39,727 bases of DNA from positions 1 through 39,727 of the forward strand of contig CANROY010000004.1 in NCBI GenBank assembly GCA_947632355.1, written 5' to 3'. This DNA comes from an uncultured Bacilli bacterium. GTDB lineage: Bacteria > Bacillota_I > Bacilli_A > RF39 > UBA660. Position numbers and translations under genes: made by a program. Positions 298-7,618 of the stretch are shown one piece after another. Each line of letters begins with the position of its first letter. The stretch's first letter is position 1. Below the pieces are notes generated by a model. It did no database searches. It was given only the letters and a program-made list of their open reading frames with translations, and was not told where the DNA came from.

Positions 298-352
298 ACA
301 TTAGAAAGAAATTACTATACCTAGGAATTAGGTATGGCGAAAGGAGCGTAAT

Positions 353-2927: not shown

Positions 2928-3185
2928 ATGAATAAATTATTAAAGGATCGCGTGTTAGAGGAAGCAAATTACATTGTGAACACCAAAAAGACTATACGGG
3001 AAGTAGCAGACTATTTTCATTTAAGTAAGAGTACCATTCATAAAGATATACAAGAAAGGTTACCAAGAGTTTCTCCCATACTCTATCAAAGGGTGCGTTT
3101 TATATTAGAAGAACATTTATTAGAACGCCATATAAGAGGTGGAGATGCAACAAAACAAAAATATTTAAAGAAACAAGTGAGTTGA
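2928..3185 (+). CDS. spoIIID: Sporulation transcriptional regulator SpoIIID
   Basis: 85 aa. HTH TIREVADYFHLSKSTIHKDI and C-terminal RHIRGG motif typical of SpoIIID. Confidence 0.9.
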   Translation: MNKLLKDRVLEEANYIVNTKKTIREVADYFHLSKSTIHKDIQERLPRVSPILYQRVRFILEEHLLERHIRGGDATKQKYLKKQVS

Positions 3186-3189
3186 TATT

Positions 3190-3786
3190 ATGAAAAAAAT
3201 TCATTTTACTATCTATGTTTGTGATAATGAATTCTTTTTACAAAAAGAAAATGGACAAGTTATAAAGGAAAACTTTAAAAGTTTGGAATGTGAAGAGATT
3301 AAGGATAGTTCATTATTTCAAGAAGAGTTTAGTAAGTTCTTACAAAAACATTCGATTCGGATTTCTTTGTTTGGCAAAAATATTGTGTTTATCAAAAACA
3401 AAAATTTAAGTCCTTTAACCCAAGAAAAATACAAAGAAATTTTTAATGATTATTTTCGTAAAATTGAATTCATAGATTTAGAAGATATATTTCAAATCGA
3501 TAATGAAAATGGTGTTCTATTTCTAACCAAAAAATATTTGGATTATTACTATAGGAAGAAAAATAAAAAAGAGCAAATCCGTATCGATTTAAAAATATTT
3601 AATGATAGCAATACGAAAGCAATTCAACATGTAATGAACAATTTATACAAACCAAAAAATTTAATTGTGTTAGGGCCTATAGAAAATATAGCCTCCATAA
3701 CCGATGAAATTCATAAAAAATATAACGTAGAAACAACGTTTCCAGAGGCATATTTTACCTATATATTCGAAGAATGCAAAAAATAG
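3190..3786 (+). CDS. Hypothetical protein (198 aa)
   Basis: Long ORF tightly following spoIIID. No motif recognised by eye. Confidence 0.5.
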   Translation: MKKIHFTIYVCDNEFFLQKENGQVIKENFKSLECEEIKDSSLFQEEFSKFLQKHSIRISLFGKNIVFIKNKNLSPLTQEKYKEIFNDYFRKIEFIDLEDIFQIDNENGVLFLTKKYLDYYYRKKNKKEQIRIDLKIFNDSNTKAIQHVMNNLYKPKNLIVLGPIENIASITDEIHKKYNVETTFPEAYFTYIFEECKK

Positions 3787-3820: not shown

Positions 3821-3857
3821 ATAATTGCAAATGGTAAACTATATAGAGGTGAAGTGT

Positions 3858-4583
3858 ATGATTAAGATAATTGTCGTTGAAGATGAAAAAGAAACACAAC
3901 TAACAATCAAGAATCTTTTAAGAAAAATGGATTTCTTAAAGGATGAAGAAATTAAAGTGGAATACTTTACAAAATATACAAATGCTTTAAAAGAGGTTAT
4001 CTTAGATAAGGAAGAACGTAAAATTTATATTTTAGATATTGAATTGGATAGTAAAGTAAGTGGCATTGATATTGCCCGTTTTATCCGTGACAATGATTGG
4101 GATAGTGAAATCATATTTATAACGAATCACGATAAAATGTTTGAGACGGCTTATCGTTCTGTCTATGAAGTTTTTGACTTTATTGAAAAATTTCATGATT
4201 TAGAACAAAAGTTAAAGAAAGACTTAAAAGCGATTTTTAAAAAGAACTTTGATAATAAAATGTTTAAGTTTGAAAGTAGAAATCTAAATTTACAAATTTT
4301 CTATCGTTCCATAACCTATTTGTATCGTGATACAGAAGAAAGAAAATTAATTATTAATACGGATAAGACAAGTTATGCAATCTATATGAATGTACAAGAT
4401 TCTTTAAAATATTTGGATAATCGTTTTCTTATGGTACATAGGGCATGTGTTGTAAATATGGATTGTGTTGAAGAATTTAATTGGTCAAAAGGATACTTTG
4501 TATTGAATACTGGCGAAAAAGTACACTTATTATCTAGAAAATATAAGAAAGAAGTTGAAGAGTATTATGCAAGAAATAGTTAG
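3858..4583 (+). CDS. LytTR-family response regulator (AgrA-like)
   Basis: Receiver domain (VVEDE, ILDIEL) plus a C-terminal LytTR-like domain. ATG 3858 follows SD gaggtga. The ORF-track start 3825 is probably too far upstream. Confidence 0.85.
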   Translation: MIKIIVVEDEKETQLTIKNLLRKMDFLKDEEIKVEYFTKYTNALKEVILDKEERKIYILDIELDSKVSGIDIARFIRDNDWDSEIIFITNHDKMFETAYRSVYEVFDFIEKFHDLEQKLKKDLKAIFKKNFDNKMFKFESRNLNLQIFYRSITYLYRDTEERKLIINTDKTSYAIYMNVQDSLKYLDNRFLMVHRACVVNMDCVEEFNWSKGYFVLNTGEKVHLLSRKYKKEVEEYYARNS

Positions 4584-5838
4584 CTGGTTTTTATACATTA
4601 TTTCAATTATTTTTACATATATTATTTATAATATTTGCTATGTAAAATTAAACAATGCTGAATTTAAATTGACTTTTTATAATCTTATGAATGTAGTAGT
4701 TACATGTTTATTAGTTCTATTAAATAATAGTTATAATAATTTATGGTTAAAATTTATTATCGTTCCAATTATTACATGTATATCTTTCAAGTTGTTATAT
4801 CATGATAATTGGAAAAAAGTAATAATTTCTTACATTTTTATATTTTTAATAACTATTGTTATAGAATTTGTACTTACAAATTTATTAAATTTCTTTGGAA
4901 TTTTAAATAGCTATATTTTAGTAATATCTATAACAATCACAAAAGCGATTTTATCTATAATAGTAGTTGTTTGTGAATGTTTGTTAATTTCCAATAAATA
5001 TATAAATAAGTTTTGTAAAAAATTAATTGACAATTTAATAACTACTATTAATATTATGAATATAATGTATTTATTATATTTTACTATTGCAATATTTAGC
5101 ATTTTAAATGTAATTAATTTTGCTACAAAAGATTCTATAAAGCTACTTTTAATTTTGTTAATATTATTTATAGTATTATTTGCATTAATAATAAGTTTAA
5201 AATCTAAAGAAAAAGTATTGATTTTATCAAATCAAAAATTAATAGAATACAATACAAAATATGGAACATTTTTAGATGAATACAAAATATACAAACATAA
5301 TATAAATCATAAATTACATGCAATGAAAGCATTTGGAAATAAGAAAATAAACTCTTTAATTGATGAATTAGTGAATGAAGAAAATAATTTTGATATAAAA
5401 AACAATAACCTGTATAATATTCCAAATGGTATTAAAGGTATAGTAGCTGAAAAACTATATAATGCCAATATCGAAGTAATTATTAATAATAATATTAAAT
5501 TTGATCCGTTTAAAACTTTATCTCCAAAATTATTTAATTCTATTTCTGAATGTTTAGGAATAGCATTAGATAATGCAGTTGAAGCTTGTAAGGAAACAAA
5601 TAATCCGATTATAACAATGGATTTATTTGAAAAGAAAGAAATTATTTATATAAAAATTGGTAATAATTTTAAAAATTCAATAGATTTAAATAAACTTGGA
5701 GAAAAATATTATTCTACTAAAAATAGAGGTAGTGGGCTTGGATTATTTTCTATAATGAGAAATAAGGCAGTTAAAGAGAAAATAAGTATTATTAATAATT
5801 TTTATTATATTGAATTGCAAGTAAAAAAAGCGCGTTAG
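4567..5838 (+). CDS. Multi-TM sensor histidine kinase, AgrC-like (GHKL ATPase)
   Basis: About 6 hydrophobic helices, then H-box region YKHNINHKLH, N-box LDNAVEA and G-box GSGLGL. Start is either ATG 4567 or TTG 4555. Confidence 0.8.
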   Translation: MQEIVSWFLYIISIIFTYIIYNICYVKLNNAEFKLTFYNLMNVVVTCLLVLLNNSYNNLWLKFIIVPIITCISFKLLYHDNWKKVIISYIFIFLITIVIEFVLTNLLNFFGILNSYILVISITITKAILSIIVVVCECLLISNKYINKFCKKLIDNLITTINIMNIMYLLYFTIAIFSILNVINFATKDSIKLLLILLILFIVLFALIISLKSKEKVLILSNQKLIEYNTKYGTFLDEYKIYKHNINHKLHAMKAFGNKKINSLIDELVNEENNFDIKNNNLYNIPNGIKGIVAEKLYNANIEVIINNNIKFDPFKTLSPKLFNSISECLGIALDNAVEACKETNNPIITMDLFEKKEIIYIKIGNNFKNSIDLNKLGEKYYSTKNRGSGLGLFSIMRNKAVKEKISIINNFYYIELQVKKAR

Positions 5839-5859
5839 TAATTAATACTGCGCGTTTTT

Positions 5860-6570
5860 GTGTAAGAAAACCCCCAGATAGTCTGGGGGTTCGGTAGAGC
5901 TTAAGCGGTGAGTTGAAAATAAAAACTCCTTCTAATATAATATTGATTGCGACCGCCAGGAAGCAACAATAATATTAGAAGGAGGACATTTAAATGAAAA
6001 ATATTCAAATAAATGATATAAAAAGTTTAGCACATACACAATGGAATTGTAAATACCATATAGTATTTGCACCAAAGTATAGGCGCAAAGTGTTTTATGA
6101 AAGTAAAAGATTAGAAATAGGACAAATATTGAGACAGCTATGTGAATGGAAAGGAATAACAATAATAGAAGCAGAAGTATGCCCAGACCATATACATATG
6201 TTGGTGGAGATACCGCCAAAATATAGTGTATCAAGCGTAATGGGATTTTTGAAAGGGAAAAGTAGTTTGATGATCTATCAAAAATGGGCAAATATGCGCT
6301 ATCAATATAGAAATAGAGAATTCTGGTGTAGAGGGTACTATGTGGATACAGTAGGAAAAAATACAAAGAAAATAAAAGAATACATACAAAATCAATTAAA
6401 AGAAGATCAATTAAGCCATCAAATGACGATGGAAGAATTTGACCCTTTTCTAAAAGGGTAGCAAGTAAAAGATGCGACTGGCGGTCAAAGAAAGGCCACT
6501 TTAGTGGAGGCCAATAGTAAAGCCTTTTAGGCGCAAATGAAAAACCACCAGCTATGCTGGTGGATATTTA
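5860..6570 (+). mobile_element. IS200-group (IS200/IS605 family) insertion sequence, about 0.7 kb
   Basis: Single Y1 transposase gene. Left-end GC hairpin cccccag/ctggggg (5871-5889). A 13-bp hairpin (5926-5938 with 5972-5984) buries the tnpA SD aaggagg. Right-end hairpin ccaccagc/gctggtgg (6545-6563). A 9-bp inverted match, gaccgccag (5951-5959) with ctggcggtc (6478-6486), links the two ends. Boundaries are approximate. Confidence 0.75.
5994..6461 (+). CDS. tnpA: IS200/IS605 family transposase TnpA (HUH/Y1)
   Basis: 155 aa. Has YHIVFAPKYRR, the HUH motif DHIHMLVEIPPKYSVS, and GYYV near the C-terminus. Confidence 0.92.
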   Translation: MKNIQINDIKSLAHTQWNCKYHIVFAPKYRRKVFYESKRLEIGQILRQLCEWKGITIIEAEVCPDHIHMLVEIPPKYSVSSVMGFLKGKSSLMIYQKWANMRYQYRNREFWCRGYYVDTVGKNTKKIKEYIQNQLKEDQLSHQMTMEEFDPFLKG

Positions 6571-6578
6571 TTTAAAAA

Positions 6579-6698
6579 TTATAATAATTCTTCAGGACAG
6601 TCTGATTCATCCCAAGCTCCCCACCAAGTAAATGTTGAAACTCCGTTGTTAACAACACCAGCTAAAGCAGATAATACACTTGCTAAAATACTAGCCAT
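6579..6698 (-). CDS. AgrD-like autoinducing-peptide precursor (39 aa), not in the supplied ORF track
   Basis: Translation is MASILASVLSALAGVVNNGVSTFTWWGAWDESDCPEELL. SD aaggaggg lies 7 nt upstream. The ORF starts 56 nt downstream of agrB on the same strand. It has an amphipathic N-terminus and an acidic tail DESDCPEEL that aligns with S. aureus AgrD DEVEVPKEL. Confidence 0.7.
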   Translation of the reverse strand: MASILASVLSALAGVVNNGVSTFTWWGAWDESDCPEELL

Positions 6699-6754
6699 TC
6701 TTCTTCCCTCCTTTCTTTGTTTAAAACTATTAAATAAAATAATTTAAACCACAA

Positions 6755-7351
6755 TTATTTTTTATAATGCAAATAGTTTTTGCATGGAATATGAAATAAT
6801 TTATAAGTAATTGGACAAATACAAATTGATTCTATAAGTAATGTAAAGAACACAATTTCAGAATAATTGCTATTTTTAAAATAGAAGCAACTAATTAAAT
6901 AAATACTTGCTAATGATAGAGTAATTATTTTGTTAGTTTCTCTTTTTTTCTTATTTAATAATGGTCGTGAAGGTGTATCAGCAGGTGCCCATAAGATAAA
7001 GGCGAGTATACTGATTCCAAAAAATATATATAGAATTGTATTTGGTATAGTTACATATTTAATACATAGTGGAACAATAACATAAACACTTAAGGTAACA
7101 ATCCAACAATAACTATTTTTTGTAGCATGTATGCCGAATGCAAATCCTCTTAAAATGGAGTATAAGAGTATCATGGTAAGAGTTATGGGAAATGTTTTTA
7201 AAAATATAGATAAAATAAGAACAACACTTGTTTTTGTTATTAAAGAATATAAAGATTCTAAGGTGTAACGAAAAATGTTTTTTTGCTTTTCAGTACAAGC
7301 ATTATTTCTTATTAAATACTCTAATGAATGAGTTACAAACGCATTTTTCAT
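6755..7351 (-). CDS. agrB: Accessory gene regulator B (AgrB) membrane peptidase
   Basis: 198 aa polytopic protein. GIHATKNSYC reproduces the catalytic His...Cys pair with the same 7-residue spacing as S. aureus AgrB H77/C84. Also has APADTPSRP followed by a KKKR basic loop. Confidence 0.85.
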   Translation of the reverse strand: MKNAFVTHSLEYLIRNNACTEKQKNIFRYTLESLYSLITKTSVVLILSIFLKTFPITLTMILLYSILRGFAFGIHATKNSYCWIVTLSVYVIVPLCIKYVTIPNTILYIFFGISILAFILWAPADTPSRPLLNKKKRETNKIITLSLASIYLISCFYFKNSNYSEIVFFTLLIESICICPITYKLFHIPCKNYLHYKK

Positions 7352-7475
7352 ACTACCACCAACGATTCTATAATAGCATTTTTTTAGTTATAAAAACTGT
7401 AATTAAGAACTAATTAAAATCTTTTTTGTCTAAAATAATAATTTAAAGATAAGAAAGAAATTGAAGGTTTAGAAT

Positions 7476-7505
7476 AAAACAAAAATGATAAGATTTTAGA
7501 CAAAA
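7476..7505 (-). promoter_or_regulatory. 9-N12-9 direct repeats TTTTGTCTA-N12-TTTTGTTTT (minus-strand reading) upstream of agrB. Candidate LytTR box.
   Basis: 9-mers at 7505-7497 and 7484-7476, 21-bp period, about 125 nt upstream of the agrB ATG. Same architecture as, and 7/9 and 8/9 identity to, the repeats at 3791-3820. Confidence 0.4.
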
Positions 7506-7618
7506 AGACTTGCGTGCGAACTTTGTCGATTGTATTTTATTGTTTGCGTGCCTATTTAGTGGTATGGTTAAGTTGTAAGCAGTAAGAAGTAAATTTAAGA
7601 AGAAAAGAGGTGGCAGTG

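Follow-up and report, generated by a model that had tools for sequence, protein, structure and literature searches.

The structures of autoinducing peptides (AIPs) are usually predicted by the rule 'Cys (or Ser) plus four residues'. In Staphylococcus aureus, which makes a five-residue thiolactone from an agrBDCA operon, the precursor AgrD is cleaved between M32 and D33, with D33 and E34 being essential for this cleavage, and the AgrB residues R70, G75, H77, and C84 are required for proteolysis (PMC10196373). Other ring types are already known as well: Cys can close a ring of six residues, and Ser forms oxygen esters in rings of five or nine residues. For the AgrD of Clostridium acetobutylicum, whose core is CVLVTL, the synthetic peptide R6T0 with a six-membered ring is bioactive, and relatives of this precursor have been described as six-ring systems (PMC10301443). 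Similarly, Rc-AIP1 of Ruminiclostridium cellulolyticum (CWFWSY) has been detected by mass spectrometry as a six-residue macrocycle (PMC8251862). In Clostridium (Hungateiclostridium) thermocellum, the pentapeptide S25-F29 is followed by Y30, and the conserved Pro is P35 (PMC5322536). As Ser replaces Cys in the AIPs of Staphylococcus intermedius and C. thermocellum, AgrB-type enzymes can evidently make esters. The Agr-type pheromone GBAP of Enterococcus faecalis, derived from FsrD, is also a lactone (oxygen ester), formed by Ser within a much larger ring.

In this study, we analysed a 39,727-nt stretch of DNA, hereafter the window, from an uncultured Bacilli bacterium (contig CANROY010000004.1 of assembly GCA_947632355.1) that carries a locus related to these systems. 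With the six-ring clostridial AgrD proteins, the precursor encoded in the window shares a register that consists of a nucleophile position, five hydrophobic or aromatic residues, and a follower of the form [D/Y]-E-x-x-x-P-E-E-L-L, and with their loci it shares a cognate AgrB as well as a kinase and a regulator in a separate transcription unit. Unlike them, however, the peptide has Thr (T24) instead of the Cys nucleophile that is typical of this subgroup, a short leader of 23 residues, and a Phe before the nucleophile; moreover, no LanM-like gene lies nearby, and the host belongs to the uncultured gut Bacilli rather than to Clostridium. A predicted oxygen nucleophile in place of Cys is a feature shared with the Ser-lactone AIPs of S. 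intermedius and C. thermocellum, and in the C. thermocellum precursor the conserved Pro is likewise at position 35. However, those AIPs have Ser, a five-residue ring, and a nucleophile 10 residues before the Pro, whereas the window's peptide has Thr, six-residue spacing, and a putative nucleophile 11 residues before it. In common with S. aureus AgrD-I and AgrB, the window's proteins have the leader-core-acidic follower organization, a predicted cleavage before a D-E pair, and conserved AgrB residues (R, G, H, and C) at equal spacing. In the window, a six-residue ester rather than a five-residue thiolactone is predicted, and agrBD and the regulator and kinase genes converge instead of being joined in an agrBDCA operon. 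The oxygen ester would also be shared with GBAP, although the conservation pattern in the window's family points to T24, not to S21, as the residue involved.

The agrBD genes and their neighbourhood

The precursor gene, an agrD-type ORF of 39 codons and a stop at 6579..6698 on the minus strand, translates as MASILASVLSALAGVVNNGVSTFTWWGAWDESDCPEELL. It begins 56 nt after the end of agrB on the same strand, and a strong Shine-Dalgarno site (aaggaggg, 6706..6713, minus strand) precedes its ATG at a spacing of 7 nt, all of which the initial annotation had read correctly from the sequence. The predicted peptide can be divided into a leader, M1-F23 (6630..6698), which consists of the amphipathic segment MASILASVLSALAGVV followed by the conserved NNGVSTF and has low column entropy among 83 clade members; a predicted core, T24-W29 (TWWGAW, 6612..6629), with T24 as the predicted nucleophile, hypervariable residues 25-28, and W29 as the predicted C-terminal ring residue; and a follower, D30-L39 (DESDCPEELL, 6582..6611), which contains C34 and P35, has conserved columns with counterparts in S. 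aureus, and is the part predicted to be released by AgrB. The AgrD-like propeptide proposed in the initial annotation, built from leader, core, and acidic follower, is supported by the homologues after agrB described below.

The same arrangement of agrB followed by a small ORF is found in all 14 related loci that contain agrB (L001-L012, L015), and in every related locus examined the ORF is identical in length to the window's agrD. The initial annotation had raised the question of whether small ORFs after orthologous agrB genes keep W25 and the TWWGAW core; the ORF is present throughout, but both W25 and the core are variable. In a genome scan with AgrB, two genomes of uncultured gut Bacilli, one from a mouse catalogue and one from a rabbit, were each found to carry a locus with a 39-codon ORF at the same place, and a scan of metagenome contigs with AgrB gave a single locus, L003; the contigs bearing peptide P0184 end before agrB. 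On the peptide side, a padded search gave eight further agrD-type peptides, a profile of diverse family members gave 794 matches at E<=10, and HMMER, run exhaustively against 1.84 billion cluster representatives, returned 262 matches at E<=1e-3. The window's own clade, recognized by N-N-G-V-S-T-F/Y-[T/S/C], comprises 86 retrieved peptides (85 distinct) with 74 different five-residue cores; across the clade the leader and the acidic tail are kept, while residues 25-28 are hypervariable.

A codon comparison of the window with its relatives L001 and L002 revealed the same pattern, with an overall pS of ~0.5 and pN of ~0.2, the strongest constraint in the tail (pN/pS ~0.1-0.2), and pN >= pS at codons 25-29, i.e., purifying selection on the leader and the tail. 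Both alternative frames at the ORF are closed. On the basis of the homologues, the selection pattern, and the closed frames, the ORF is a real AgrD-type precursor with a diversifying signal segment, and its family assignment is secure. We infer that the diversifying residues 25-28 set signal specificity.

The AgrD family model, which had been suggested as a check, does match, but not above its threshold: NCBIfam TIGR04223 (AgrD, cyclic lactone autoinducer peptide) scores the window's peptide at 16.6 bits (E 0.0066), just below the curated cutoff of 19, and a Pfam search with the peptide gave no match. Among its clade mates, P0153 and P0122 have no match and P0165 reaches 18.4 bits, whereas peptides of sister clades score 19.8-33.4 bits and the C. 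acetobutylicum AgrD 38.8 bits; homology from the window's peptide to the members that pass is continuous. Two sister-clade peptides, P0197 (a Thr form, named by JGI) and P0192 (a Ser form, named by NCBI), already carry the name 'cyclic lactone autoinducer peptide'; for the window's clade, we found no name in public sources. A one-residue length difference relative to TIGR04223 was considered as evidence for a longer ring and then dropped, as the six-ring P0197 and C. acetobutylicum AgrD both match the model without a net indel.

The agrB gene (6755..7351, minus strand; Pfam PF04647, E 3.8e-33) encodes an integral-membrane cysteine peptidase and cyclase. Its residues R68, G73, H75, and C82, which correspond to R70, G75, H77, and C84 of S. 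aureus minus two in numbering, are invariant or at least 97% conserved among 106 homologues. An AlphaFold model of the protein is all-helical with a pLDDT of 88.8. Searches of the PDB with AgrB by sequence and by profile gave nothing relevant, and Foldseek with the confident model gave no significant match; hence, these searches offered no solved AgrB structure on which the substrate register could be modelled. The protein also contains a motif I-C-I-C-P (C177 and C179) that precedes a conserved P180-x-T-Y, and residue 177 is Cys in 92 of the 106 homologues, the remainder having L, M, A, or S. A covariation of C177 with oxygen nucleophiles, perfect in 11 pairs, was refuted by two further loci: L011 has a ring-Cys peptide and retains C177, and in L015 an AgrB with S177 is paired with a Thr peptide.

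Convergent with agrBD are the genes for an AgrC-like sensor histidine kinase with a polytopic N-terminal half and a GHKL domain (4555..5838, plus strand; Pfam HATPase_c_5, E 3.8e-11) and an AgrA-like response regulator with a receiver and a LytTR domain (3825..4583, plus strand, with an approximate start codon; Pfam Response_reg and LytTR). An AgrB with the catalytic His and Cys and the accompanying Arg and Gly stands alongside an AgrC-type polytopic kinase and a LytTR regulator. The best NCBIfam match of the regulator is quorum_RR_AgrA, far below its cutoff, and because scores on the staphylococcal equivalog models are this low, the kinase and the regulator are best viewed as family-level relatives only. 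In comparison with L001 and L002, the sensor (membrane) half of the kinase is 39-40% identical and the catalytic half 72-75%, and the C-terminal part of AgrB is 63-66% identical and the N-terminal part 84%. Such a divergence pattern is that of a specificity-determining region centred on agrD. The fast-diverging kinase sensor half and AgrB C-terminal half resemble the hypervariable region of staphylococcal agr loci.

The kinase and regulator genes are syntenic in all related loci, and the order of the locus, with secA-hpf-cspA on one side of agrB-agrD and the convergent histidine kinase and LytTR regulator genes, a 198-aa ORF, and spoIIID on the other, is kept even where AgrB is merely 36-41% identical to that of the window. 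Pfam offers no convincing family for the 198-aa ORF (3190..3786, plus strand), whose neighbours are spoIIID (2928..3185) and the agr response regulator gene; in the distant syntenic loci L004 and L006, an unannotated ORF of similar size takes its place. The region between agrB and cspA (7352..7612) contains blocks that are near-invariant in the window, L001, L002, and L003 (...AAAATAC[A/G]NTCGACAAAGTTCGCA... and TTTTGTCTAAAAT) and hold an inverted GACAAA / TTTGTC pair ~20 nt apart. They could represent a site for a regulator or belong to the leader of the divergent cspA gene; upstream of agrB we found conserved blocks but no clear LytTR-type direct repeat.

A full-length IS200/IS605-type element (~5852..6575) lies between the stop codons of agrD and the kinase gene. 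Over 97% of its length, it is 64-65% identical to IS1541/IS200 copies at the nucleotide level, and it includes an Rfam STnc490 element (5869..5981, plus strand) and a Y1 transposase gene (5994..6461, plus strand). The insertion site is the 21-23 nt spacer that separates the convergent agrD and kinase stops in L001 and L002, and neither gene is disrupted. A terminator-like hairpin with a T-run at the end of the inserted copy (6545..6563), 15 nt past the agrD stop, now reads as a minus-strand terminator after agrD, and the ancestral shared hairpin remains beside the kinase stop (~5828..5860). Elsewhere in the window, an Rfam L31-Firmicutes ribosomal protein leader was found at 315..346 (plus strand; 33.6 bits, just over the gathering score).

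Predicted cleavage site, ring register, and the nucleophile column

The follower of the window's peptide has the D-E pair of AgrD proteins at the cleavage site and a Pro five residues later. Among the best 150 cluster representatives of the family, D30 is found in 139, E31 in all 150, and P35 in 143. Since D30 and E31 are near-invariant and are the counterparts of S. aureus D33 and E34, AgrB is predicted to cleave after W29, which would make W29 the C-terminus of the signal. The initial annotation had placed the cleavage at the same position by aligning the tail with DEVEVPKEL, which it gave as the tail of S. aureus AgrD-I; a literature search for this string found no paper.

The position of the ring-forming residue is a different matter. 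The annotation had noted, correctly from the translation, that C34 is the only Cys and that W25 lies 10 residues before P35, and it had applied the rule that the nucleophilic Cys is found 10 residues before the conserved Pro. This rule holds for five-residue rings, but not for the six-ring subfamily represented in the window, in which the nucleophile is 11 residues before the Pro. Accordingly, the description of a Trp in place of the ring-forming Cys arose because a five-residue ring was assumed; the six-residue register puts T24 there. Position 25 of the window's clade (n=86) is occupied by W in 18 peptides, L in 18, Y in 17, I in 12, F in 10, and V in 8, and W25 is the first variable ring position.

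To define the columns, the register was anchored on the near-invariant follower D/E-E-x-x-x-P, with the nucleophile taken as the sixth residue before the follower. Between positions 20 and 35, indels affect only 3 of the 150 best cluster representatives, the other 147 having none, and peptides from the AgrB-anchored loci were aligned by MAFFT without gaps. The core and follower of C. acetobutylicum AgrD (...GK-C-VLVTL-YEPKMPEELL) and of the window's peptide (...TF-T-WWGAW-DESDCPEELL) are also alignable without a gap. Twelve loci (the window, L001-L010, and L015) were found through AgrB alone and are hence unbiased toward the peptide. In all 12, the T24 column contains exclusively C, S, or T: T in the window, L001, L002, L003, L006, L007, and L015, S in L004, and C in L005, L008, L009, and L010. 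The best 150 cluster representatives have C in 116, T in 19, S in 14, and G in 1 (C/S/T in 149 of 150); the profile for the searches that gave 794 and 262 matches already had C/S/T at this column and slightly favours such sequences, a bias that the AgrB-anchored loci avoid. Within the window's clade, the column is T in 81, S in 4, and C in 1 (n=86). In one pair, P0184 and P0192, C and S, respectively, precede the identical ring VGWIW.

Taken together, the AgrB-anchored register, the composition of the column, the gap-free alignment with C. acetobutylicum AgrD, and the six-residue Rc-AIP1 show that T24 is the homologue of the ring-forming Cys. The window's peptide belongs to an AgrD subfamily with six-residue rings, in which the nucleophile, predicted to be T24 in this case, is positioned 11 residues before the conserved Pro.

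Several peptides of the family have additional Cys residues near this column. The Thr-type P0128, P0131, P0140, P0142, P0155, and P0168 contain an extra Cys in the variable ring positions (e.g., T-VFCAW and T-ILVCW), and in P0228, P0254, and P0368 a Cys directly precedes the Ser or Thr of the nucleophile column (ASTCT..., ASTCS..., and ASVCS...). These two groups are ambiguous with respect to both ring size and nucleophile.

Immediately before T24, the window's clade has Phe or Tyr (VSTF|T), whereas most of the family have small residues at -1 and -3 (GSQA|C and ATTG|C). Because of this difference, leader processing may differ from that of most of the family, and both the conserved VSTF block and the Phe at -1 point to another processing site.

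The sole Cys of the peptide, C34, encoded at 6597..6599 on the minus strand, directly precedes P35 and is invariant in the window's clade. As the annotation had expected, it falls within the follower that AgrB would remove, beyond the D-E cleavage determinants. Across the best 150 representatives, position 34 is C in 69, M in 61, T in 9, A in 7, and I in 2. Since Cys or Met is found here across the family, position 34 is a tolerant hydrophobic follower position before the Pro, and C34 is neither a ring former nor a catalytic residue. A follower Cys is present in 28 of 33 Thr/Ser forms and in 41 of 116 Cys forms (Fisher p = 4e-7, uncorrected for relatedness). The idea that C34 compensates for the missing ring Cys was rejected as a general rule, as many ring-Cys peptides carry ...ECP... 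and some Thr/Ser peptides carry ...EMP....

A predicted six-residue threonine macrolactone and its alternatives

We propose that the window's locus is an agr-type quorum-sensing system whose most likely product, with a probability of about 0.6, is the six-residue Thr24-to-Trp29 macrolactone TWWGAW. The restriction of the T24 column, the register, the reality of the gene, and its membership of the family are directly supported; the Thr-linked product is what we infer from the sequence. Among the outcomes listed in the initial annotation, a Thr lactone of non-standard size at T24 is hence the favoured one, and the use of S21, T22, or C34 as well as a linear peptide are disfavoured. In the proposed pathway, AgrB, using C82 with H75, R68, and G73, would cut between W29 and D30 and release DESDCPEELL, whereas the N-terminal part of AgrD would stay on C82 as a thioester through W29. 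The side-chain hydroxyl of T24 would then attack this thioester to give the macrolactone T-W-W-G-A-W, and the leader would be removed afterwards, leaving a product with a conserved exotail from ...VSTF or without any. The hypervariable membrane domain of the convergent kinase would detect the mature peptide, and the kinase would signal through the LytTR regulator.

If there is no exotail, an O-to-N rearrangement of the ester to cyclo(TWWGAW) would be expected, because an analogous S-to-N shift occurs in tail-less clostridial peptides (PMC8251862). It is possible, although rather unlikely in our estimation, that this homodetic cyclopeptide is itself the signal, with the leader being cut right before T24 and the free amine next to the ester causing the acyl group to move spontaneously from O to N. 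Neither of the two native clostridial peptides that have been detected carries an N-terminal extension, the six-residue Rc-AIP1 exists as a lactam, and the fate of extension-less Ser-lactone peptides has been stated as still open (PMC8251862); furthermore, a 'traceless' nucleophile would explain the free interchange of C, S, and T at the T24 column. However, the clade has Phe or Tyr before T24 rather than the small -1 and -3 residues of most family members, and the conserved VSTF block fits a retained exotail at least equally well. The nucleophile itself may be questioned too, as the Thr hydroxyl is a weaker nucleophile than the Cys thiol and no Thr-linked AIP is documented in the literature searched. 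From this, one could suppose that AgrB merely trims its substrate to a linear Trp-rich peptide ending at W29, with T24 being kept for receptor binding or processing. Such an outcome seems improbable to us, given that the T24 column is limited to three nucleophilic residues that switch between near-identical peptides and that linear forms of related peptides were inactive where tested (C. thermocellum L5, PMC5322536).

Ring closure by another residue of the peptide is also conceivable. GBAP has a ring of nine residues. The segment S21-W29 likewise spans nine residues, and S or T occupies position 21 in 135 of the 150 best representatives, which would suit a nine-residue lactone closed by S21, or an eight-residue one closed by T22, like E. 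faecalis GBAP. Position 21 is, however, equally conserved in the Cys-nucleophile majority, so that ring closure does not account for its conservation; Q, V, N, or K often occurs at position 22, and position 24 would be expected to vary freely under this arrangement, yet it is T, S, or C in 149 of 150. We thus hold a ring through S21 or T22 to be very improbable. A role of C34 as a functional thiol, whether it closes a ring in an unusual way or relays an acyl group within the follower, could be read from its invariance in the window's clade and from the enrichment of Cys at this position among Thr/Ser forms, but scarcely any weight can be given to it: the family has Cys and Met in comparable use there (69 and 61), Thr/Ser forms with Met at 34 exist (P0232, P0336, P0341, and P0365), a follower Cys also accompanies a ring Cys (L009 and the GSxA-C...DEPECPESLIK clade), and the residue lies past the D-E cleavage determinants, in the part that, in the S. 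aureus model, is cut off before the ring closes.

Implications for AIP prediction and AgrB chemistry

Thr, the putative nucleophile of the predicted six-residue macrolactone, is a secondary alcohol. When the six-ring subfamily is clustered at 50% identity, ~13% of the clusters have Thr at the nucleophile position, and so does nearly all of one large unannotated clade from gut Bacilli. We found no AIP cyclised through Thr in the searchable literature, an absence that is not in itself proof. On balance, we lean towards the view that, in this lineage, AgrB uses the secondary alcohol of Thr to close rings of six residues, and that Thr-ester AIPs, or the cyclopeptides formed from them by O-to-N rearrangement, are a widespread undescribed chemotype.

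With respect to the rule by which AIP structures are usually predicted, the window's locus shows three limits. A large subfamily has a six-residue register, and the five-residue rule, if applied there, picks the wrong residue. Besides Cys and Ser, Thr is often present in the nucleophile column as a third alternative. Furthermore, the whole precursor clade lies under the TIGR04223 cutoff and is therefore missed by tools built on that model, such as PGAP naming and the antiSMASH-based agrD searches (as used in PMC12180512). If the Thr ester is real, it would broaden the known chemistry of AgrB and would provide concrete peptide structures to synthesise for signalling studies in uncultured gut bacteria.
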